Part shown: one piece after another, positions 1,530 through 24,452 of the stretch | How positions within the stretch are numbered: position 1 is the first letter of the stretch | Layout of the letters: each line of letters starts with the position of its first letter | DNA from: Pirellulales bacterium | GTDB taxonomy: Bacteria > Planctomycetota > Planctomycetia > Pirellulales > Lacipirellulaceae | NCBI GenBank assembly: GCA_041741515.1 | Contig: JBGSJY010000012.1 | Location: 9,256 to 73,255 of the forward strand | DNA length: 64,000 bases | Direction of reading: 5' to 3' | Notes under the pieces: generated by a model | The model's database searches: none | Told to the model about the DNA's origin: nothing | The model's input: only the letters and a program-made list of their open reading frames with translations | Translations under genes and position numbers: made by a program

Positions 1530-2420
1530 TCAGCGGGCCGTCCGACGGCGTGGCCGGCCAACCATCGCGACGCCCAGCAGCGCCAGAACCGCGGCGGTCG
1601 GTTCGGGGATCGCGTTGACGCCGACATCGGCGAGCGTGGTGCCGAGGCGGATCTCGTCGATTGCGAAGTCGGCGTAGAGCCCCTGCGCGTTCGAGTTGCC
1701 GGAGAAGATGCGGACGCGACCGAACAGATAGTCGTGGTTGTTGCCTTCCGCTTGCGTCAGCTCAACGTCCGGGGCGCCCAAGGGGCCGTCGAGGCTCGGG
1801 TTGATCCACATCCGGGCTTCGTCGGTCGATACGCCGGGGCCCTCGCCGTCGATGTCGTCCTGCACGACGAACTCCATCAGCACGAACGCCTGATTGGTGA
1901 TCGGCTCGGCTGATTCTTCGAGCAGCGCTCCCGATCCGTCGGAGAACAAGGCCCAATTGTAGAGCTGGTTGGGAGCGGCGGTGGTCGCCTTGCCGGCGCT
2001 GAGCCGCTCGTCGCCGCTCGTGCCGAAGCCCTTGTGCAGTTGGAAACTGCTGGCCCGCACGGTGTTGTCGTCGAGCGTGCCGTGTGGCGAGAGCCGCTGG
2101 CCGATAAAGCTAACGTAGTAGGTCCCGGCGCCGTGCTCGGCGGCGAAGTCCCGGTAGGCGGAGAGCGATCCACCCGAGCCGCTGATCAACGCGGAGTTGC
2201 CGGTCGTGGCGAGCGAGCCATAGCTGAGGCTGCCCGGAACAACGGAGCCCGCCGTCCAAGCGCCGCCCCATCCGGAGCCGCCATTCTGGCCGGAGAGGCT
2301 GCCTTCGGCGTAGTCAAAGCCCTCGTAGGCGAGCAGTTCGGCCCGGGCGTTCCCTGACACGGCCAGCGCCGCCGCGATCGCCAAGGCGCCCAGCTGAAAC
2401 GGATTGGTGCAAGAGGTCAT
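1530..2420 (-). CDS. secreted PEP-CTERM protein (paralog of the N-terminal half of 3428-5452)
   Basis: ATG 2420 with GGAG RBS; signal peptide ending ARA; C-terminal IPEPT-hydrophobic-RPRRRTAR. Confidence 0.9.
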   Translation of the reverse strand: MTSCTNPFQLGALAIAAALAVSGNARAELLAYEGFDYAEGSLSGQNGGSGWGGAWTAGSVVPGSLSYGSLATTGNSALISGSGGSLSAYRDFAAEHGAGTYYVSFIGQRLSPHGTLDDNTVRASSFQLHKGFGTSGDERLSAGKATTAAPNQLYNWALFSDGSGALLEESAEPITNQAFVLMEFVVQDDIDGEGPGVSTDEARMWINPSLDGPLGAPDVELTQAEGNNHDYLFGRVRIFSGNSNAQGLYADFAIDEIRLGTTLADVGVNAIPEPTAAVLALLGVAMVGRPRRRTAR

Positions 2421-3427
2421 TCGTTGCCATCTCCATGAGACGAGGTCGCTGCTCTGCGGCGCCGAAGCTCTCAGGCCCTTGCTGAGAGCAAGCCGCGACA
2501 AGCAGCAAAGTAGAAAAGAATCGAAGTAGCGTGTCGATTGGATGAGCGATCTGCCGGATCGACTCCGCTGATCGGCAGACGACGTCAGTTGGGAGGTTAA
2601 CTACCGAGTAAGTCGATCGTCGACAGGAAAACGGCGAGGTTTTGATATTTCTGACGTACTTTGCAATTTCACACTTGCCGTGAGGGCGATCGGATAAGCG
2701 AATTGCAAAGAGCGTCTGCGGGTTTGCGTTTTACGTCTCGTTCCAATGCGGAGCTCCGCCACCGTCGGCACGCTCCCCCAGCTAAGGCACTATTGCGATC
2801 GACGAGGTCGAGAAGTACGGCCGCTGCAACCTAGCAAGCGCGCGTGCAGATGTGGATGAGGTCGAATCCCGACGAGCGAGATGCGACGGAAGGGCGGCGT
2901 AGGCTCGCTCGGTACCGCAACGGCGGCGGCTCGGTCGCCCCGGTTCGGGAAGCTCGCCTCGAGCGAGGGCCGGCGTCGGCCGTGCTGCCGGAGTGCTGCG
3001 CTAGCGTCGAGTGAGGTGGTCGCTATTGCACCACTTTGCCCCGAGCCGTACGGGCGGCATCACCCACTAACGCACGCGCTTCGCTAATCAAGAGTCGTTT
3101 TGCAATCGGGGTCGGTGTGCGAGCCGTCGGTATCAGTTTCAATGGGGACCTGAATCCTACCACTTCTCAAACACTATCTAGTCGCTCACGAGGTTGCCCT
3201 CGGAGAGATCGGTTCCAAGCCCGTCGGATCCCCCGACAGGCTTCCCTCCAATCTCCCGTGGTTTCTGACTTTTTATGTCGGTCTGCTTTGGCAGAGGCGT
3301 GCTGATTTCGGCCCTACGTCGCTTGCGGCGAGGCCTTCGCGGTACGCGGGTCGGCGATGAGGCATCACGCCGGCGCCCCTTTTGATGTTCGTGCATGATT
3401 AACCCCGTTGGGGCGGAGATTGATTCG

Positions 3428-5452
3428 ATGAGATACGCATCGTCCATGGTTGCGCTGGCAGCCTGCCTAGTCCTTTCGTCGGCCCTTTCATCAACGGCGC
3501 GGAGCGAGGTGCTCGCGTACGAGGGCTTCGATTACCCCCTGGGCTCGCTGGCCGGCGCCAGTGGCGGCTACGGATGGGAGGGCGCCTGGGGAGTTTCGAA
3601 TGACGTCGTCGTGGTCGCGGGCAGCCTCGGCTACAGCGACGGCGTCAGAAATCTGCCCACCGTCGGCGGGCATGTGCTGGTGGGCGGCGCCGCCGGAACC
3701 GCAACGGCGATGCGTTCGTTGGTGTCCGATTTGACGCTTACGCCCGGCGAGTACTGGATGAGTTTCGTCGGCCGCCGCGAGCAGCCCCACCCCGATACGC
3801 CCAACAATTACGCCCGCTCAGCAGCGTTCCAGACGCAGTACATCGGCTCGTCGACGGTCGAGCAGTTCAGTGTCGGCAAGGTGACGACCGGCGTGGCCGG
3901 CGCGGTCACCCAGACTTGGGATCTGTACAGCATCCAGGTCAATCCCGGCAGCATCACGAGCACGGGCGTCGATCAATCAACGCAGGTGATGGCTCTGATG
4001 CAGGTGACGATCGTCGGCGGTAACGACACTGCTGATGACGACACCGTCAACCTCTGGATCAATCCAAGCCTCGACGAGAACGCCCCGCTCGGCACGCCCG
4101 ACGCCGTCAATGCGGGCTTTGACGACTATCTGTTCGACAGTATCCGGCTCTTCGCCGGCGGAACGACCGCCGACGGCCTCTATGCCCAGATCTCGCTGGA
4201 CGAGATCCGCGTCGCGACGACCCGCAAGGACGCGTTGACGGGCACGATCGTCTTGGGGGACACCAACGGCGACGGCGTCATCACGGCGGCCGACCTCACG
4301 CCCATTCGGACCAACTACCGACAAAACGTGCAGTTCCGCAGCCAGGGAGACCTGGACGGTGACGGCTCGGTCACGTTTGCCGACTTCCGTCAATTCAAGG
4401 ACGCGCTGCTCGGCGAGGGTTTGTCGCTTGCAGGGATGGATTTGACGTTCCTCAGCGTGCCGGAGCCCAACTCGGTCACGCTGGGGTGCTTGGCCGTCGG
4501 CTTGGCGACGATGCTCCGCCGCCGACGCGTCGCCTGCGCGGTAGCGGTCGGCCTTCTGGCGACGCTGGCGCCAAACAACGCGTCGGCTGCGATCACCGCG
4601 ATCGGCGATCCCGAAACGGGTTATGGAGTGGATCCGGCCGTGTTCACGGTCGATCCGTTCGCCGCCGCCGCCAGAGCCAATCGCGGCATCGCCAATACGC
4701 GGAAGCTGCGTCAGACATTCAAGAACCCGACCGACATCAATGTCGGTGAGATCGTCATCTCGTTCGACGTTACCGGCGGCGCCACCGCAGGCAGCGCCAA
4801 CGACACCGGGCTTGCGTTACGGATCTTCGAGGTGGCCGACACGCTCGCCTCGAGCTGGCTCCCGTTGGGTCTTCCGATCAAGGAGATCATTCTTCCACCC
4901 GGCCAGATGCCCGCCGCCAATATGATGCTCAGCTTCAACCTGACCGACGGCGACATCTTCACGCTCCCGGCCCGCTTTACCGGCACAGAAGGGTACGGCA
5001 TCGAGATTTCGACCCCGCTTGCGCAAAGCTCTGACGGCAACCCAGGGGTTATCTTCCATACCAACGACTCGGCTACCGACTCCTACCCCGATGGCCGGTA
5101 CTACATCGAGAGCGGCAACGCCAGTAATTCCTACCGCGATGTCGGCTTGTCGTTGATCGCGACCAGCGCCCAGGCCTGCCTGCTTGGCGACGTCAACTGT
5201 GACGGGACCATCGATGCCGAGAACGACCTGGCGACGATCGCCGCCAACTTCCGGCAAACGGTATCGGGTCGTGAATTCGGCGACCTGACTTCCAACGGGT
5301 TCGTCGACTTCGACGACTTCGATCAATGGAAAACCAACTATTCGGGCTCGCTAGCGAACGTCGATCTCTCCTTCTTGAGCGTTCCTGAACCGACCACGAT
5401 CGGCCTCTCCGTGTTTGCGGCGATGGTCGTCCTTGCTCGTCGACGCCGCTAG
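3428..5452 (+). CDS. double PEP-CTERM protein (two secreted modules, each ending in dockerin-like EF-hand pair plus VPEP sorting signal)
   Basis: ATG 3428 with GGAG RBS; internal LSVPEPNSVTLGCLAVGLATMLRRRR followed by VACAVAVGLLATLAPNNASA; terminal LSVPEPTTIGLSVFAAMVVLARRRR. Confidence 0.9.
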   Translation: MRYASSMVALAACLVLSSALSSTARSEVLAYEGFDYPLGSLAGASGGYGWEGAWGVSNDVVVVAGSLGYSDGVRNLPTVGGHVLVGGAAGTATAMRSLVSDLTLTPGEYWMSFVGRREQPHPDTPNNYARSAAFQTQYIGSSTVEQFSVGKVTTGVAGAVTQTWDLYSIQVNPGSITSTGVDQSTQVMALMQVTIVGGNDTADDDTVNLWINPSLDENAPLGTPDAVNAGFDDYLFDSIRLFAGGTTADGLYAQISLDEIRVATTRKDALTGTIVLGDTNGDGVITAADLTPIRTNYRQNVQFRSQGDLDGDGSVTFADFRQFKDALLGEGLSLAGMDLTFLSVPEPNSVTLGCLAVGLATMLRRRRVACAVAVGLLATLAPNNASAAITAIGDPETGYGVDPAVFTVDPFAAAARANRGIANTRKLRQTFKNPTDINVGEIVISFDVTGGATAGSANDTGLALRIFEVADTLASSWLPLGLPIKEIILPPGQMPAANMMLSFNLTDGDIFTLPARFTGTEGYGIEISTPLAQSSDGNPGVIFHTNDSATDSYPDGRYYIESGNASNSYRDVGLSLIATSAQACLLGDVNCDGTIDAENDLATIAANFRQTVSGREFGDLTSNGFVDFDDFDQWKTNYSGSLANVDLSFLSVPEPTTIGLSVFAAMVVLARRRR

Positions 5453-5528
5453 GGCGTCGGCTTCAAACTCCAAGACGGCAGTCAATCCTTGGCTCCTCGC
5501 GGTAATCATCTCCAGACGGCAGCTTCAG

Positions 5529-7439
5529 ATGAAAGTCATGATCCGCATAAATTGCTTCTCGATCCGCCGCCAGCTCTTGGTGGGTTGCTCCCTGGCCTCG
5601 GCCTTGCTCGTACTTGCGGGCGTGGCCAGCGCCCAGGTGAACTATGAGTTCCAGCCGCTCCCGACGGCGCCCGAGTCGGCACGGTTGTGGACGGATAGCG
5701 CGAACTGGCTGGACGCCAACTTAGGGAACAGCTTCGTCCCGAACGTCTTCTTCAATGAGCGGGCCCTCATCAACAACGGCGCGACGGCCGTTCTGACGGT
5801 CAACAGCCCGAACGATCCTAATTCGGACGCGTCGGTCGTGACGCCTGGCGCCGTTTCGATCGGCAGTGGCGGGCTCGACATCCGCAGCGGCGGCGGCCTG
5901 TTCGTCAGCGCTGGGAACGGGGCTTCGGGTGCGTTCACCCTCGGCGGCGGCGGTACCGGCACGCTGCTGGTGAACCCGGGTGGCGAGCTCTCGGTAGCCT
6001 CTTCGTTGAATGTCGGCGGCAACTCAGCGAACACGATCACCGTCGGCGGCCCGACCGGGGCGACCGCCAAGCTGACCGCTAACTCCGCCTTGCTATCGGG
6101 AACGACGCACCTCTACCCGAACGCCGACGTCAACATTGGCGCGGGGGTGCAGTTTGTGAACTCTTCGGTCTACCAGGTTGAAATCGGTGGGCTGTCGTCT
6201 TTCGGCGCCATCAACGCTGGCGGGCCTGTCTCGACGGCGGGAACTCTGCAGCTGAACTTCTCGGGCTTCACCCCGACGGCGGGTCAGTCGTGGGACATCC
6301 TCGAGGGCTCGTCGGTCGCGGGGAACTTTGCGAGCGTCTCGAGCAACGCCGCGCTCGACTACAACGAGACGGTCGTCGTCTCTCGCGCCGATCTCGGCGC
6401 CGGCCGATTCGCCGTCCGCGCCGCGATCGAGGAAGTGCTCGTTCTCGAAGTGAATCGCAACACGGGCGTCGCGACGATGACGCATCCCGGCAGCTCGACT
6501 ATCTCGCTCGACGGATACTTCATCGGCTCTGCGGCCGGTTCGCTCCGCGCGGCCGATGCGTCGTGGAACAGTTTTAACGAGAGCGGACAGCTCGGCAACG
6601 ACTGGATCGAGACCGCCCAAACGGTCAACAACATCGGCGAGCTCAAGATCGGCGCCGACGCGACGTTCGGCTCGTCGGTGAACCTCGGCCCAATCTACGA
6701 CGCGCTCGCCGGCAGCTTTGGCGCGTCGGGAGAGGACCTGGTGTTCAACTACCGACGCTCCTCGGACGGCGTCCAGTTCCCGGGCGTGATCCGCTACACA
6801 GGAGACCTCGTCAACTCGTTGGTGCTCCAGGTCGACCCGAACGGCTCGGGCGACGCGTTCCTCCGCAACACGTCCGGCACGACCGTCGAGATTGACGCGT
6901 ACGAGGTGCTCTCTAGCGCGGGGCGACTCAACCCCAGCGGCTGGAACAGCCTCGACGACCAGAACGGCGCCGGGGACGTCTGGCTCGAGGCGGGTGGCGT
7001 TGGTCCTGGCTTGCTCGCCGAGTTCGACTCCGAGGGGTACACGACGATCGCCGCGGGCTCGTCGCTCAACCTGGGTCCGCTATTCGCCGGTGGCGCTCAG
7101 GACCTGGCGTTCAACTTCCTGCTGCGTGGCGACGCCGAGAGCACCAACGGCGTGGTGATCTACGACCAGTACGTACCGGGGGCCGGCCTGCCCGGTGACT
7201 TCAACAACGACGGCTTCGTCAACGCCGGCGACTACACGGTCTGGCGTGACAACGTCGGCGCGGCGAGCCTCCCCAACGACAACAACCTTGGCGTCGTGGG
7301 ACCGGCTCACTACCAGTTGTGGCGCGACCACTACGGATCGACTAGCAGCAGTGCTGCGGCGGCGATCCCGGAGCCCACGGCCGTCGCGATCGCCTTGGCG
7401 GCCCTAACGATCGCCTGCGGCGCGCGGCGATCGGCCTGA
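5529..7439 (+). CDS. secreted PEP-CTERM protein with Gly-rich beta region, two internal repeats and dockerin-like motif
   Basis: signal peptide ending ASA; repeats LVLEVNRNTG..WNSF..WIE..DLVFNY / LVLQVDPNG..WNSL..WLE..DLAFNF; GDFNNDGFVNAGDYTVWRD; IPEPT tail. Confidence 0.88.
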   Translation: MKVMIRINCFSIRRQLLVGCSLASALLVLAGVASAQVNYEFQPLPTAPESARLWTDSANWLDANLGNSFVPNVFFNERALINNGATAVLTVNSPNDPNSDASVVTPGAVSIGSGGLDIRSGGGLFVSAGNGASGAFTLGGGGTGTLLVNPGGELSVASSLNVGGNSANTITVGGPTGATAKLTANSALLSGTTHLYPNADVNIGAGVQFVNSSVYQVEIGGLSSFGAINAGGPVSTAGTLQLNFSGFTPTAGQSWDILEGSSVAGNFASVSSNAALDYNETVVVSRADLGAGRFAVRAAIEEVLVLEVNRNTGVATMTHPGSSTISLDGYFIGSAAGSLRAADASWNSFNESGQLGNDWIETAQTVNNIGELKIGADATFGSSVNLGPIYDALAGSFGASGEDLVFNYRRSSDGVQFPGVIRYTGDLVNSLVLQVDPNGSGDAFLRNTSGTTVEIDAYEVLSSAGRLNPSGWNSLDDQNGAGDVWLEAGGVGPGLLAEFDSEGYTTIAAGSSLNLGPLFAGGAQDLAFNFLLRGDAESTNGVVIYDQYVPGAGLPGDFNNDGFVNAGDYTVWRDNVGAASLPNDNNLGVVGPAHYQLWRDHYGSTSSSAAAAIPEPTAVAIALAALTIACGARRSA

Positions 7440-18589: not shown

Positions 18590-19777
18590 TTAAGCCCGTC
18601 CTTTTAGCATGCCGTGCCAGTAGATCGCCGGCAGGGCGAATTCCTTCAGCATCAGCATGCTGAAACGTTCCTGAGACTGGTCGAAGGGGAAAGTCTCTTG
18701 AGGATTCTTGTCGTAGTCGAACTCGGCCAGGACGAGACTGTCGTAGCCCGTGACAATCGGGCAGGAGGTGTAGCCGTCGTAGCTGGCGGTGGGCGGCTTG
18801 CCGTCGATGACCGCCAGCAGGTTCTCGACCAGGACCGGGGCCTGCTTGCGGATCGCGGCGGCCGTCTTGGACGTGGGTAGGCTCGAGGCGTCTCCGATTC
18901 CAAAGACATTGGCGTACCGGGTGTGCCGGAGGCTGTGCTTGTCGACATCGACCCAGCCCGCCTCGTCAGCGAGGGGGCTGTTAGCGACAAAACTCGGCGG
19001 GCCCATCGGCGGCGTGACGTGCGCCATCTCGTAGTCGATTGTCACGATCTCGCCGCCAACGACGCGTTGGAAGACCGCTTGCTTCTGGTCGCCTCGTATC
19101 TCTCGCAACTCCAGGCCGAATCGGGTGTCGATCCCTTTTCGGGCGACCGCCTTCTCAAGGGTGCGGGCGTAGCGAGCGACGTCGAAGATCGTGTCCTTTG
19201 CCGAAGCGAACACCACCTCACAGCGGTCACGAATTCCCGATCGGCGGAAATGGTCCTCGGCGAGATAGCAGATCTTCTGGGGGGCCCCGCCGCACTTTAC
19301 GGCGCCGGTGGGGTGGGTGAAGAGCGCCGTGCCGCCGCGAAAGTTGCGGATGTTCTCCCAGGTCGATCCCACCGTTTCGTAGGAGTAGTTGCTGCAGACG
19401 CCGTTCTTGCCGAGCGACTCCCGCAGTCCCGCCACGCCGTCCCAGTTGATCTGCAGGCCGGGCGCAACAACCAAGAAGTCGTACGAGACTTCTACCCCTT
19501 TGCGCGTCCGTAAGCGATTCGCCGCGGGATCGAAGGAAGCGACGGCGTCCTGAATCCACTCGGCCCCGCTGGGGATCACCTCGGCTTCCTTTCGGCGAGA
19601 TTCTTCACGAGGAAAAATGCCGCCCCCCACCAGCGTCCACATCGGCTGGTAGTAGTGGTCGCTCGAAGGATCGATGACGACAATCTCCAGCCCCGGCGCC
19701 GCTCGGAGCAGCCGTGCCGTGACAGTGAGCCCGGCGGCCCCGCCGCCGACGACGACCACCGGATGGAAGACATTCAT
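18590..19777 (-). CDS. sqr: sulfide:quinone oxidoreductase, type II
   Basis: VVGGGAAG FAD motif; catalytic Cys motifs KCGGAPQKI and YDGYTSCP; LAEFDY; ATGA overlap with DUF1641 gene. Confidence 0.9.
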   Translation of the reverse strand: MNVFHPVVVVGGGAAGLTVTARLLRAAPGLEIVVIDPSSDHYYQPMWTLVGGGIFPREESRRKEAEVIPSGAEWIQDAVASFDPAANRLRTRKGVEVSYDFLVVAPGLQINWDGVAGLRESLGKNGVCSNYSYETVGSTWENIRNFRGGTALFTHPTGAVKCGGAPQKICYLAEDHFRRSGIRDRCEVVFASAKDTIFDVARYARTLEKAVARKGIDTRFGLELREIRGDQKQAVFQRVVGGEIVTIDYEMAHVTPPMGPPSFVANSPLADEAGWVDVDKHSLRHTRYANVFGIGDASSLPTSKTAAAIRKQAPVLVENLLAVIDGKPPTASYDGYTSCPIVTGYDSLVLAEFDYDKNPQETFPFDQSQERFSMLMLKEFALPAIYWHGMLKGRA

Positions 19778-20529
19778 TCGGCATCCTTCGGTGTAAGGGG
19801 GGCGCCGCTGCAAGGCTGGCCAACGAGGTCGCCAAATGCCCGCGCGAATTGAAGTGCGAAAGCGATCGACTGCTGCGTTTTGGCGTCGCTGAGAGATCGA
19901 AGCGTGCCGAGGATGCCGGCCCGTGCCGGCGTCGTTGATTCGCAGGCTTCGCGCTGACAGTTGACGAGCGCTGTCGCGGCGTTGCCGACCACTTGTAACG
20001 CGCTGGGGTCGAGCACATCGGAGCGGAGCAGCAGTCCAAGACGTTCGAGCTCCACCGCGCTGATCCGCTGCCCGAGCCAGAGCGCCGTCCGCAACCCGCC
20101 CCGCAAGGCCGCGGCGATATCGAGCCCCTCCTCGCCACAGCGACGCGCCCCGTCATCGACCACGTCGACCAGCGTCGCGAAGAGGTCGGGGACGGAGTCC
20201 GAAAGAGCGGCCAGCCGTTCCAGCTCGGGCGCCCGGTCGGCGAGGGCGACCAGCGCCGAGAGCGTCTCACGGCGCGTAAGCCGCTCCGCTAACCGCGCCA
20301 ATCCGGCGAGCCGTTCGTCGGCGTCGCCGCCGGTCTTGCCCAGGCGCTGAGCCCGTTCGTCGAACACGTCGCAGGCGATGGCGGCAAAGTCCGCGGCCGA
20401 CTCCTGGAACCGTTCGATCTTTGCGAGCCGCCCGTTCAACTCTTCGAGTTGCGTCAGGAGCCGCCGCGAGATTGCCTCGGTGGGAGGGTCGTGGCGATCG
20501 TTCTTCAGGGCTGTGGAATTGTCGGGCAT
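19774..20529 (-). CDS. DUF1641-like helical protein
   Basis: C-terminal GILGTLRSLSDAKTQQSIAFALQFARAFG; family usually sits next to sqr. Confidence 0.75.
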   Translation of the reverse strand: MPDNSTALKNDRHDPPTEAISRRLLTQLEELNGRLAKIERFQESAADFAAIACDVFDERAQRLGKTGGDADERLAGLARLAERLTRRETLSALVALADRAPELERLAALSDSVPDLFATLVDVVDDGARRCGEEGLDIAAALRGGLRTALWLGQRISAVELERLGLLLRSDVLDPSALQVVGNAATALVNCQREACESTTPARAGILGTLRSLSDAKTQQSIAFALQFARAFGDLVGQPCSGAPLTPKDAE

Positions 20530-20574
20530 CTTAGCCGCCTTTACCTCCGGGGCGAGTCATCGAGAGCGGTCGCG

Positions 20575-22014
20575 TCAGGCCGTCGCGCAGGGGCCCGTCA
20601 CGCATGCCGCGGCGCCCGTTTCCGCGGGCAGGCCCGCGCGACTCCAGGCGCCGAAGCCGCCCGCCAGATTGATGACGTCGTAGCCCGCGTCGATGAGTAG
20701 GCTCGCGGCGATCGCCGACCTCATCCCGCTCTGGCACTGGGTGACCACCGGCTTGGAGCGGTCGATCCCGGCGAGATTGTCCGGCAGCTTGCCGAGAAAG
20801 CGGTGGTCGGCTTGCGGGATGTGGCCGGCGTCCCATTCGCCCTGAGCCCGGACATCGAGCACGTGGACCTCGCCCGAGGCGATGCGATCGGCCAACGCTT
20901 CGGGATCGGCGTTCGGGTAGGAGTGATCCATCCGACCGGCTTTGCGAAGTTCGTCCGCGGAGAAGACCCCCGCGACCTCGTCAACGCCGATCTTGTTGAG
21001 CACGCGGACCGCTTCGGCGACCTGATCCCCCTCGGCGATCAGGTAGACCGGCTCGTCGTAGTTGAGCAACCACCCCGCCCACCCAGCGAGCATGCCCGCC
21101 GGGATGTTCAGCGTCCCCCGTGCGAAGCCGGCGGAGAAGCTAGCGGGCGGCGACAAATCGACCACGGCGCCGGCGTCGAGCGCCCCCTCGAGCGCGCTAG
21201 CCGGCAACCGCGGCGGCTCGGAGTACGCGCCCAGAACCTTGGGGCCTTCTTTGTTGACCCGCTTCATGACGGCAAAGTACTTCGGCGCCTCGGGTTGGTC
21301 CGCCAGGATGTAGCGGACGAACTCTTCTTCATGGTCGAACTGCAGCGCCGGGTTGAAGAGCTTCTCGTACCCGACGGTTGAGGAAGGGATCGCGCCGAGG
21401 CCTTTGCCGCAGGCGCTGCCGGCGCCGTGGGCGGGCCAGACCTGGAGGTGGTCGGCGAGCGAACGGAACCGCTCCACCGAATGGAAGAGCTGGTGGGCGC
21501 CGACCTCCGCCGTCCCCACCATGCCGGCCGCCTCTTCGAGCAGGTCGGGTCGGCCGATCGACCCGACGAAGACGAAGTCGCCGGTGAAGATCCCCATCGG
21601 CATGTCGGCCCCGCCGCCACGGTCGGTCAACACGAACGAAACGCTCTCGGGCGTGTGACCGGGGGTGTGCATCACCTCGAAGTCGATCTTCCCGATGGGG
21701 AAGCGGTCGCCGTCTTTGCAGAGGCAATGGTCGTACTGCGAGAGGAACTGGTACTTCCACTCGGCCGGCCCTTCGTCCGAAACGTAGAGCTTCGCCCCGA
21801 CCCGGTCGGCCAGCTCACGCGCTCCCGAGACGTAGTCGGCATGGATATGCGTCTCGGCGACCGCCACGATGTCGAGCCCCTCGCGTTTGGCCGCATCGAG
21901 GTAAGGCTCGATGTCACGGCCCGGATCGACGATCACGGCCTGTTTGGCCTTTTGACAGCCCACCAGGTAAGAGGCGTGGGCGAGCGAGCGGTCGTAGAAA
22001 TAGCGGAGTAACAT
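20575..22014 (-). CDS. MBL-fold persulfide dioxygenase with two rhodanese domains (CstB/Blh-like)
   Basis: THIHAD, HTPGHT, FTGDF, PAHGAGSACG; C-terminal rhodanese CQSGMRS; AAGGAG RBS. Confidence 0.9.
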   Translation of the reverse strand: MLLRYFYDRSLAHASYLVGCQKAKQAVIVDPGRDIEPYLDAAKREGLDIVAVAETHIHADYVSGARELADRVGAKLYVSDEGPAEWKYQFLSQYDHCLCKDGDRFPIGKIDFEVMHTPGHTPESVSFVLTDRGGGADMPMGIFTGDFVFVGSIGRPDLLEEAAGMVGTAEVGAHQLFHSVERFRSLADHLQVWPAHGAGSACGKGLGAIPSSTVGYEKLFNPALQFDHEEEFVRYILADQPEAPKYFAVMKRVNKEGPKVLGAYSEPPRLPASALEGALDAGAVVDLSPPASFSAGFARGTLNIPAGMLAGWAGWLLNYDEPVYLIAEGDQVAEAVRVLNKIGVDEVAGVFSADELRKAGRMDHSYPNADPEALADRIASGEVHVLDVRAQGEWDAGHIPQADHRFLGKLPDNLAGIDRSKPVVTQCQSGMRSAIAASLLIDAGYDVINLAGGFGAWSRAGLPAETGAAACVTGPCATA

Positions 22015-22047
22015 GGCGACACTCCTTTTAGTTGGAACGACCGCCGC

Positions 22048-22845
22048 CTAGGCGATCGATTGGAAGACAACGAAGGCCGCCACCGCGACCATCGCGACGG
22101 CGAAAGTTCTTTGCAGCGTTGGACCGGACAGCTTTGCCGAGAGCCGCGTGCCAAGTTGCATGCCCAGCACGCCACCCACCACGAATAAGGCGGTCAAGCT
22201 CCAGGAAAGCGATCCGCCGTGGAGCACATAGGACGCGACGCCCGAAACGCTGATCAGGAAGACCACCATCAGTGACGTCGCCACCGCGGTGTGGATCCGC
22301 ATGCCGCCAAACAGCACCAAGGCCGGCACAATCACGAATCCGCCCCCCACCCCAAACATGCCTGAGAGCACGCCGGTGAGCACCCCGAGCGTCACCAGCA
22401 ACACCACGCAACGCGGCCCGAGCGTCGGTCTCCCGCGGGCGTCAAGTTGGCAGACAAACCGACTGGCGTCTTCGTCGGACCGCTCCGGCGCGATCGACTT
22501 GAGCCACAGACGCACCGCGATCACCAGCATCAAGCCGCTAAACAGCAATAGGAGCGTCGCTTCGGAGAGCATCGTTGAGAGCTTTGCCCCCAGCGGCGCT
22601 CCGACCATGCCGGCGACGGCAAACAGCAGCCCGGTGCGGACATCGATCTCACCCCGCCGGAGCCGTGAGACAGCGCCTACCAGAGCCGTCGTTCCCACCG
22701 CGGCCAGCGAGACGCCGACCGCTTCGCGAGGCGGCATCGACAGGCCATAGACCAGCAGGGGGATCGCGAAGATACCCCCGCCGCCGCCGGTGAGGCCCAG
22801 CGCGAAGCCGACCGCGACGCCGCCGGCGATGGCTAGGCCGAGCAC
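22048..22845 (-). CDS. sulfite exporter TauE/SafE family
   Basis: GLTGGGGGIFAIP and SGMFGVGGGFVIVPAL repeats; likely GTG start at 22845 after a G-run. Confidence 0.9.
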   Translation of the reverse strand: MLGLAIAGGVAVGFALGLTGGGGGIFAIPLLVYGLSMPPREAVGVSLAAVGTTALVGAVSRLRRGEIDVRTGLLFAVAGMVGAPLGAKLSTMLSEATLLLLFSGLMLVIAVRLWLKSIAPERSDEDASRFVCQLDARGRPTLGPRCVVLLVTLGVLTGVLSGMFGVGGGFVIVPALVLFGGMRIHTAVATSLMVVFLISVSGVASYVLHGGSLSWSLTALFVVGGVLGMQLGTRLSAKLSGPTLQRTFAVAMVAVAAFVVFQSIA

Positions 22846-23384
22846 GACCCCCCCCCACACTGGTTCCAGGGCATCCGGGCCAGCATCATCCCCATGCCGC
22901 AGGTGTCGGTGACGCCCGCGAAGGTGAGGCCTGCGCCGACAAAGGCGGACAACCCGATGAAGTAGGGGTGAACGAAGTAGCCGAGCCCCGCCCCGAGGAG
23001 CACCAGGAGCCCCGCCACGATTCGGACCTGGCGTTCGAGCGAGATCGCCTTCTTCCCTCGGTTGACCGGCAGGCCGGCCTCTTGCCAGGCGAGCGTTCCC
23101 CCCTCGACGTGGACCACGTTCTCGTGGCCCGCCTGAACCAACTTCTCGCACGCCTTCATCGCCCGCGACCCGGACCGGCAGAGCACATAGATCGGCTCAC
23201 CGGCTGAACCTTGGCGTTGTTCCTTCAGGGCGTCGGGATCGAGCGAGTCGAGCGGCGTGTTCCGGGCAAGCGGGGCATGCAGCTCGCGGAACTCGACCGG
23301 GGTGCGTACGTCGATCACATCGACGTGGCTCTCCTTGGCCAGTTCGGCGAGACGCTGAGCGGTGATGGTGGTGATTTGGCCCAT
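22833..23384 (-). CDS. rhodanese-DUF2892 (YgaP-like) membrane sulfurtransferase
   Basis: IDVRTPVEF, active-site CRSGSRA, SLERQVRIVAG..GVTDTCGM; GGAGG RBS. Confidence 0.9.
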   Translation of the reverse strand: MGQITTITAQRLAELAKESHVDVIDVRTPVEFRELHAPLARNTPLDSLDPDALKEQRQGSAGEPIYVLCRSGSRAMKACEKLVQAGHENVVHVEGGTLAWQEAGLPVNRGKKAISLERQVRIVAGLLVLLGAGLGYFVHPYFIGLSAFVGAGLTFAGVTDTCGMGMMLARMPWNQCGGGSCSA

Positions 23385-23418
23385 CTCGACCTCCCGTAAA
23401 TGTTGTGTCATTACCTAT

Positions 23419-23433
23419 CGAAGTTACGATATA
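23419..23433. promoter_or_regulatory. putative ArsR operator upstream of the rhodanese gene
   Basis: reverse complement TATATCGTAACTTCG matches 23821-23835 at 13/15; AT-rich context. Confidence 0.5.
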
Positions 23434-23453
23434 TCGGCGTAAATAAAAACGCG

Positions 23454-23801
23454 TCACGTCGACGCACCCGCTTGGAAGCGGCCCTCAATGCAGTCCAGGA
23501 TCCGCTCCAAATGCGGCTCGGTGACGCGGTAGTAGACCCGGCGCCCTTCCTTCTCGCTGCTGAAGAACCCGCACCGCTGCATCAGCCGCAGGTGTTCGGA
23601 GGCGACGTTCTCGAGCACGCCACAGTCCTCCGCCAACTCACCGACGGTGTAGCGATCGTGCAGCACCAACTGCACCATCCGGATCCGCACGGGGTGAGCC
23701 AGGATCCGCAAGCAATCGGCCGCCTGGGCGAGCGTCTTCAGGTCGGCCCGTTTGAGCGGCCGCCCCGCGGAGTTTCTGGGTTGATTGGACTTGGTTGCCA
23801 T
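23454..23801 (-). CDS. ArsR/SmtB family transcriptional regulator (probable persulfide sensor)
   Basis: LAHPVRIRM, TVGELA, ASEHLRLM, EGRRVYY; four Cys; ATG 23801 with GGAG RBS. Confidence 0.92.
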   Translation of the reverse strand: MATKSNQPRNSAGRPLKRADLKTLAQAADCLRILAHPVRIRMVQLVLHDRYTVGELAEDCGVLENVASEHLRLMQRCGFFSSEKEGRRVYYRVTEPHLERILDCIEGRFQAGAST

Positions 23802-23820
23802 TGAGCATCTCCACTGCAAA

Positions 23821-23841
23821 TATATCGTCACATCGCGATAT
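23821..23841. promoter_or_regulatory. putative ArsR autoregulatory operator
   Basis: palindrome ATATCG-N8-CGATAT about 20 nt upstream of the arsR start. Confidence 0.6.
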
Positions 23842-24452
23842 GTCAATCAATCATTCTTGCCAATTCCTGTCGGTGCAACGCCACGCTGGCTAGCGGAAGG
23901 GCCCTCCCCGAAGGCAGGCGACAACGATGGCAAGCCCGCGAGGACGCAATGGCGCGCCTGGGCGGTCAGAGCGGGTAGGGCAGGGCGGTTGTGATCGGCA
24001 TCGAAACGTGCAGCGCCCGGCGGGCCCCTGGTGGCGCCCGAATTGTGCAGCGCGCAGTTGTGCCGAGTGAGCCGCTGAGGAGAAGCTGTTTAGCCGTGGG
24101 GCGGGGGCGAAACCCCCCTCCCGGTTTCAGGGGGGAAGACCAGTCGCCGACGGTTCCACGCTTTGTTTCTTCTACTCGGCGAGGTCCCCACCACCTCGAC
24201 CCGTGCGACAAAAGGGGCCGCTAGGCTAGATAGGGAAACACTCCGAGAGAAAGTCCGAAATGTCGCGAGGCTCCGTGCTATCTGCTCGGAAGCCCTGCTA
24301 CTGACGGTAGCGTCGCAGGAAAAGCAGTGCAGGGCAGGGCGACTAGGCAGGCTCTCCCGGTTCTAACGGAGAATCACGAGAAGGACGGCGGGAACGCCGA
24401 TAGTCGATTTAGCGGAGAGTCTTCCGCCAAGCTTCCAGACCACCGGCTTTCG

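Follow-up and report, generated by a model that had tools for sequence, protein, structure and literature searches.

Two PEP-CTERM surface proteins fused in one reading frame of a Pirellulales bacterium and predicted to be separated by signal peptidase I and exosortase

The DNA analyzed here is a stretch of 64,000 nucleotides (the window) from a Pirellulales bacterium of the Lacipirellulaceae (GenBank assembly GCA_041741515.1, contig JBGSJY010000012.1, positions 9,256 to 73,255 of the forward strand). Its plus strand carries, at positions 3428 to 5452, one open reading frame (ORF) that runs stop-free from an ATG at 3428 to a TAG at 5450-5452 and encodes a protein of 674 amino acids. The product consists of two units, A and B, each with a signal peptide and a PEP-CTERM sorting tag; two complete proteins that also exist independently are joined in a single ORF, as expected of a polyprotein. 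We propose that the gene is a conserved in-frame fusion, and we consider it likely that its product is cut by both signal peptidase I and exosortase into two exported proteins.

All parts of the gene lie on the plus strand. A Shine-Dalgarno-like GGAG (3415-3418), presumably functional, stands 9 nucleotides before the start codon. Signal peptide 1 (residues 1 to 26; 3428-3505) has a predicted cut, ARS|E, placed by hydropathy and by the aligned mature starts of homologues. It is followed by domain A (3506-4249), modeled as a concanavalin A-like beta-sandwich, by a dockerin-like or EF-hand-like pair with a linker (4253-4456), and by the internal PEP-CTERM tag (4457-4528), which comprises VPEP (4457-4468), a helix (4472-4516) and RRRR (4517-4528). 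An in-frame ATG in this helix (4511-4513; Met362) is a candidate internal restart. The h- and c-regions of signal peptide 2 (4529-4588) form a second helix ending in PNNASA, and alignment puts the cut predicted for signal peptidase I (ASA|A) directly behind 4588. Domain B (4589-5182), modeled as a jelly-roll beta-sandwich of the carbohydrate-binding-module type, leads to a second dockerin-like pair with a linker (5183-5380), identified from sequence and alignment and with an omega (ratio of nonsynonymous to synonymous substitution rates) of 0.05. The terminal tag (5381-5452) closes the chain with a second VPEP (starting at 5381), a helix, RRRR and the stop. An earlier note on this DNA had read the same layout, and its coordinates proved correct throughout, with one frame, both VPEPs, the RRRR and the NNASA end at 4588. 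Of the two dockerin-like pairs that it described, the first is supported by PF00404 (Dockerin_1) on residues 276 to 328, and the second is recognized by eye and alignment, with no separate passing Pfam stretch. No cohesin (PF00963) was matched in the source assembly (G000; 82% complete), and the repeats are best termed dockerin-like. Neither A nor B matched a specific Pfam or NCBIfam family.

Family models agree with the reading of two tags. PF07589 matched two stretches of the 674-residue protein (36.3 bits; cut-off, 20.7). The tripartite motif of the inner tag fits the family model, with its best PF07589 stretch at residues 343 to 367, and scored 22.2 bits on a hidden Markov model (HMM) specific to G000, within the top quartile of terminal tags. 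TIGR02595 passed on the terminal tag (residues 652 to 674; 19.9 bits; cut-off, 16), and a search with residues 1 to 368 alone listed no match at an E value of 0.1. In the terminal tag, motif, helix and basic cluster stand at the very end of the protein, as is defining for PEP-CTERM substrates; the inner tag is followed by 307 further residues and so lies far from that position. Hydropathy revealed four strong hydrophobic segments (residues 2-24, 349-364, 367-383 and 655-672) and a weaker fifth (572-586), which is a beta strand in the structure model. Each unit alone thus has a signal peptide and no other membrane segment before its tag, which does not hold for the whole chain, and counting signal peptide 1, the chain has four membrane segments where three membrane crossings had been predicted earlier. 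Signal peptide 2 resembles a Sec signal cut by signal peptidase I, with RRRR as putative n-region, an uncharged h-region (VACAVAVGLLATLA), a proline at -6 and A-S-A before the cut. The RRRR is placed where it could serve, as had been suggested, both as the tail of the inner tag and as this n-region. The predicted mature A, of about 320 residues (34 kDa) if cut at PEP, falls in the range of 300 to 330 residues foreseen for both products, and B is smaller, with about 267 residues (28 kDa).

Is the fusion more than a peculiarity of one strain? When the whole protein was searched against a database, 9 matches emerged from 7991 scored candidates, namely, the window's own protein, five further full-length A+B fusions, P0008, P0009 and one weak match. 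The six full-length A+B proteins are 100, 85, 80, 77, 56 and 55% identical to the window protein. The fused protein of genome G004 is one of these six, counted once, and the source record of another, P0005, names Botrimarina colliarenosi Pla108, presumably a cultured strain. All six show the order PEP-helix-RR-helix-small-x-Ala, and none contains a stop or frameshift between RRRR and the second helix, the observation that the earlier note had named as speaking against its reading. The PEP and two arginines of the inner tag are invariant in seven of seven aligned proteins, and the residues at -3 and -1 of the predicted signal 2 cut are small in all six orthologues, with other c-region positions varying. 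Among the orthologues, the inner tag has a mean identity of 0.52 and the terminal tag one of 0.48, with lower values for signal 2 (0.38) and signal 1 (0.32). Compared with G004 (synonymous divergence, dS, of ~1.1 overall; 78% amino acid identity), the junction has no indel, and omega is 0.24 for the 44-codon junction, 0.19 for the inner tag, 0.19 for the terminal tag and 0.31 for signal peptide 2, rough figures because these small segments are near synonymous saturation. The open frame as proof of selection was dropped, since 31 to 41% of neutral simulations keep the 44-codon junction stop-free; the argument is carried by omega together with the depth of the orthologue series. A metagenome scan found no fused orthologue among the loci translated, and one candidate, L075, turned out to be a stand-alone B. 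These alignments indicate that the fusion is real, old and under selection, and that both inner signals are conserved.

Both units also occur on their own. Domain B matched 6 of the 61 genomes searched, fused in G000 and G004 and stand-alone in G001, G010, G013 and G024. A search with unit B returned 72 homologues of 172 to 548 residues, most with their own N-terminal signal peptide and only one (P0009) with two tags, and the ASA|A of the window aligns with the A-x-A signal-peptide ends of five stand-alone B proteins. Unit A gave four matches within its length range, and in G013 the homologues of A and B are adjacent separate genes, each with a signal and a tag. The window itself contains a divergently oriented, stand-alone paralogue of domain A (1530-2501, minus strand; ~40% identity), which likewise carries a PEP-CTERM tag. 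For B, a quick tree (57 rows, leaving out stand-alone matches below 300 or of at least 360 residues and those after P0070) puts the six fused halves on one side of a branch with an SH-aLRT support of 99, among 51 other B rows. Under midpoint rooting they are nested among stand-alone forms, and hence the fusion is likely the derived state.

The tree of A tells a different story. A quick tree of 19 rows rejected the six fused A halves as a clade (approximately unbiased test, p-AU = 3.8e-5), because two other proteins nest among them, P0008, whose A unit is connected over a long linker with another partner, and P0011, a stand-alone A. P0011 matches the G013 gene, and the neighboring B of G013 lies outside the fused B clade. 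On this quick tree, a single origin of the whole A+B gene with unchanged inheritance is rejected, despite the B halves forming one group, and the conflict between the trees suggests that partners were swapped or split again while the junction persisted. The fixed 1:1 stoichiometry of A and B proposed earlier therefore finds no support: A occurs with another partner in P0008 and alone in G013 and P0011, and B is mostly stand-alone. As far as these trees go, partner exchange argues against an obligate pair.

The junction recurs elsewhere, in G000, G001 and G011 and among the best 150 of 1334 database matches described below. The genome-specific HMM, trained on 233 terminal tags only, was run on 34,027 frames of G000, where it detected 282 tags in terminal and 10 in inner position. 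One more came from a pattern scan, which brings the inner tags to 11, spread over 10 ORFs, one of them a three-unit chain. The pattern scan itself overlooked the junction of the window, and of its 11 "internal" rows, 4 were set aside (two at contig ends, two not tags). By a simple rule, a signal-like segment follows 8 of 10 inner tags in G000, compared with 21 of 270 terminal tags read past their stop. The nine further ORFs lie on contigs C340 (4233-7076, L011; 13777-18081, L013), C93 (two, L012 and L016), C451 (L015), C587 (L009), C585 (L014), C727 (L008) and C193 (L010), and their partners include galactose oxidase-like and lysyl oxidase-like domains. Loose linkers that retain a Met (C727, C193, P0008 and P0009) and tight ones without it (C587, C451 and C340) look like stages. 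C193 and C340 are paralogous (68% over the first unit), one with a loose and the other with a shorter linker. Two other G000 fusions are also fused in relatives, at 80% identity in G001, a single-contig genome that likewise holds such junctions, and at 63% in G011, which belongs to another genus.

A profile built from 19 junctions matched 1334 of 1.84 billion cluster representatives at an E value of ≤0.001. Among the best 150 of these, 149 had inner tags, 273 in all, and a signal-like segment followed 264 of the 273, against 68 of 2382 at random positions and 53 of 62 at true N-termini, a count that is partly circular because the profile includes the second helix. The 2500-residue P0085 has ten tag matches, nine of them internal, along with LamG and F5/8-type domains. 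Three of ten top matches looked up are named as Planctomycetales proteins. In a phylum-wide profile search that scored at most 44 candidates per genome, the matches listed were mostly terminal tags, and two of three loci examined hold junctions (L163 and L169), from which no inference is drawn on absence elsewhere; a family-wide search covered up to 107 candidates per genome, and its junctions were counted among the matches listed. A different kind of joint occurs in L198 (G013:C1:311705-314788), where a 483-residue frame has a tag at residue 379, a basic linker and, in frame, a type IV prepilin-like start, GFTLVELL; here the tag tail would act as the leader of a pilin-type signal instead of a Sec signal.

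The source genome encodes both candidate enzymes. Two exosortases in G000 exceed the TIGR02602 cut-off (111.5 and 152 versus 105.55), both with an EACSG motif and both below the cut-offs of named Xrt subtypes; one is encoded on the window's contig (C12:80858), 7.6 kb beyond the window end. Signal peptidase I is encoded as well, and at C152:8245-10721 (minus strand) two signal peptidase I genes are adjacent, one of them in an unusually long frame of 681 codons with a split match. The fused gene lies in a run of PEP-CTERM genes with DUF1559 prepilin-like, alpha-L-fucosidase, sugar dehydrogenase-like and pectate lyase-like neighbors, an arrangement syntenic in G004. Farther along the window, a large exopolysaccharide (EPS) locus (27908-63830) contains genes for an export protein, a FemAB-like protein, amidotransferases, glycosyltransferases and an O-ligase-like protein, which resemble families of the XrtA/PEP-CTERM system, mostly below cut-offs. 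A separate cluster at 18593-23846 (minus strand) combines a sulfide:quinone reductase-like gene with a glyoxalase II-like gene, the latter perhaps persulfide dioxygenase-like, which is a guess.

The structure models suggest what A and B might do. Domain A (predicted local distance difference test score, pLDDT, of 90.2) has a concanavalin A-like fold with a best match at Z 15.0 (root mean square deviation [rmsd], 2.9; 170 residues aligned), and lyases, GH16, GH131 and lectins rank lower and tie. For domain B (pLDDT, 95.8), the best fold match is a phage baseplate domain (Z 13.9; rmsd, 2.9; 162 aligned), and the lectin-like domain of Cwp84 reaches Z 10.4. Toxin domains in the fold lists were set aside as generic concanavalin A-like or carbohydrate-binding-module-like matches with 5 to 13% identity. 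From modeled fold and neighborhood, our guess is that A and B are glycan-binding surface or matrix proteins.

How might one chain give two proteins? We hypothesize that signal peptide 1 starts Sec export of A, that the helix of the inner tag stops transfer, and that RRRR remains cytoplasmic and provides the n-region of signal peptide 2, which would restart export for B until the helix of the terminal tag stops transfer again. The topology predicted from Sec rules and the positive-inside rule has A outside, RRRR inside and B outside. The proposed cuts by signal peptidase I fall at ARS|E and ASA|A, and those by exosortase at both PEP tags, which would leave A (~34 kDa), B (~28 kDa) and a 41-residue hairpin remnant; one inner cut of either kind would be enough to part A from B. 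A likely origin of the fusion is that a stop codon between tandem genes was lost and the linker then became shorter, and the fusion would be tolerated because ordinary cell machinery resolves the chain.

Other explanations differ in how much of this they retain. The assembly that contains the window has 774 contigs and is 82% complete, and loose read-through junctions exist and could be recent, so an assembly artefact or a recent neutral stop loss without functional meaning has to be considered; we find it barely credible. Unitigs of three runs (X1, X2 and X3) span positions 3300 to 4864 and cross the junction with neither a difference nor a gap, those of a fourth (X4) split there into two overlapping pieces without an indel, and a second, diverged population, seen in all four runs at lower stringency, has a junction of equal length; all four runs belong to a single study, which may also have supplied the window, and are not independent. 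These unitigs, the second population and the fused orthologues rule out an assembly error, and orthologues down to 55% identity with a junction omega of 0.24 at a dS of ~1 speak against a neutral stop loss, so the ORF is, on the sequences compared, neither an error nor a fresh loss. At 4840-5509, the unitig depth is about twice that of 3300-4864 (X1, 66.9 versus 34.8; X2, 35.8 versus 17.2) despite a single assembled copy, possibly due to a co-occurring strain that shares only the 3' part of unit B. It also seems quite unlikely that B is made mainly from an internal start, at ATG 4511 or at a TTG or GTG in the tag helix, as an ordinary separate protein, with the read-through chain from A as a tolerated by-product. 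From ATG 4511, MLRRRRVACAVAVGLLATLAPNNASA would form a complete signal peptide, this ATG is retained in G004, and 17 of the 20 junctions with DNA carry an in-frame ATG, GTG or TTG before the second helix (ATG in 4). The earlier note was right that ATG 4511 has no obvious ribosome-binding site; this carries little weight, since the true starts nearby at 5529/5538 and 8591 show none either. However, Met362 is missing at the protein level in four of six orthologues (P0003, P0004, P0006 and P0007), so restart there is not a conserved mechanism. In G000, an ATG lies within codons 12 to 22 of the tag in 1 of 10 inner tags, compared with 55 of 282 terminal tags; with all three codons counted, the figures are 6 of 10 and 160 of 282, respectively. 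Three of the 20 junctions have none of the three codons, and 146 of 200 tight junctions are without Met. As A has no stop, each ribosome making A also makes B, and the long chain is produced whenever A is. Restart may add some B.

Two further readings accept the long chain and differ in how it is cut. Signal peptidase I might act alone, with the inner tag serving as a stop-transfer anchor that is poorly or no longer processed by exosortase; A would then be tethered in the inner membrane by the hairpin and B sorted normally, still giving two proteins per gene. We regard this as unlikely, although inner tags in G000 score slightly below terminal ones (median, 17.25 versus 19.05; p = 0.08; the terminal tags being the training set of the HMM) and a loop of only four residues into the second helix might hinder access of exosortase. 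The PEP is invariant in seven of seven proteins, the window's inner tag ranks in the top quartile of terminal tags, and the archaeosortase ArtA cleaves a central tag, as described below. A chain that stays uncut, in which A and B would be a single membrane protein facing the periplasm and anchored through the hairpin and the terminal tag, or in which the hairpin would be translocated whole, appears very improbable. The helices are short and moderately hydrophobic, as this reading would want; the small-residue pattern at -3 and -1 is kept in six of six orthologues while the rest of the c-region varies, and the partly circular excess of signal-like segments after inner tags points the same way. 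Several points weigh against our own proposal of cleavage by both enzymes. Besides the lower scores of inner tags, the start codons in 17 of 20 junctions and the weak evidence that an open junction alone provides, the hairpin helices span only ~15 and ~14 residues, and the rule for signal-like segments is simple and recovers 53 of 62 true N-termini. In the literature, Haft 2006 suggests that long-tailed or atypically placed tags may be non-functional (PMC1569441), and the accessible text of a cyanoexosortase paper gives PEP-CTERM processing as predicted and does not contain the stem "cleav" (PMC12188702).

If the predicted cuts occur, the locus represents a variant of PEP-CTERM sorting that works like a polyprotein. 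Beyond this locus, we think it fairly probable that PEP-CTERM bacteria use a general tag-to-signal junction that collapses tandem surface-protein genes into polyproteins of 2 to 10 units, processed by signal peptidase I and exosortase in the manner of viral envelope proteins. Many entries annotated as single multi-domain proteins, among them many long planctomycete proteins, would then each be several proteins, and their annotation would change. The junction would be a repeatedly evolved route to several exported proteins per gene that needs housekeeping machinery only, and the PEP-CTERM tag would work away from the C-terminus, contrary to the early guess of dead tags. Such chains would also be ready-made reporters of exosortase cleavage: with the signal 2 cut site blocked, cleavage at the inner tag would be the sole means of separating A from B and would give a large gel shift, as HVO_0405 did for archaeosortase.

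To our knowledge, polyproteins are considered rare in bacteria. The envelope polyproteins of flaviviruses and alphaviruses follow the same processing logic, a stop-transfer helix, a short basic loop and a signal sequence cut by signal peptidase; they are viral and eukaryotic, and we claim no homology. In Bradyrhizobium japonicum, the FbcH cytochrome b-c1 precursor reportedly yields two proteins from one gene via an internal signal-peptidase site, which our literature searches did not confirm; it is said to differ in serving a single respiratory complex, with no sorting tag and no repeated modular use. In searches of the literature, with most subscription journals and supplements outside their scope, and in term searches within two Haft papers, we came across no account of a PEP-CTERM tag that leads into a second signal peptide. 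As far as these searches go, the novelty suspected by the earlier note lies in the combination of tag and second signal, and does not extend to processing of a mid-chain tag, which is in print for HVO_0405 and proposed for MXAN_5598. In its canonical form, the PEP-CTERM tag is C-terminal, with 87% of tags at most 10 residues from the end and the PEP set at the periplasmic face (PMC1569441). Like substrates of canonical exosortases (EpsH, Xrt), each unit here has a signal peptide, an extracellular domain, PEP, a helix and a basic cluster, and G000 has ~290 tags, two exosortases and an XrtA-type EPS locus; unlike in them, 307 residues separate one tag from the end of the chain, and a second signal peptide is fused to it. 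MXAN_5598 of Myxococcus xanthus, with an internal MYXO-CTERM that is proposed to be processed (Guo, Haft and Wall 2025, PMC11980579), is likewise a bacterial two-gene fusion with an internal sorting tag. It differs in its Cys tag, CAAX-type protease and downstream beta-barrel and OmpA domain, and the available text calls it rare and describes no second signal peptide. The Haloferax volcanii protein HVO_0405 is a centrally tagged fusion that ArtA has been shown experimentally to cleave (PMC7157517). As in the window, a gene fusion has left a tripartite sorting tag in mid-chain, and the enzyme belongs to the exosortase/archaeosortase family; yet HVO_0405 has an archaeal PGF tag in a strain-specific fusion, and the part of the paper at hand makes no mention of a second signal peptide or second tag. 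In contrast to HVO_0405 as described there, the fusion reported here is old and contains a second export signal, and its layout is seen again in many proteins; the case contributes a deep orthologue series, in most of which the inner Met is missing, a gradation of linkers and one orthologue with a named source.

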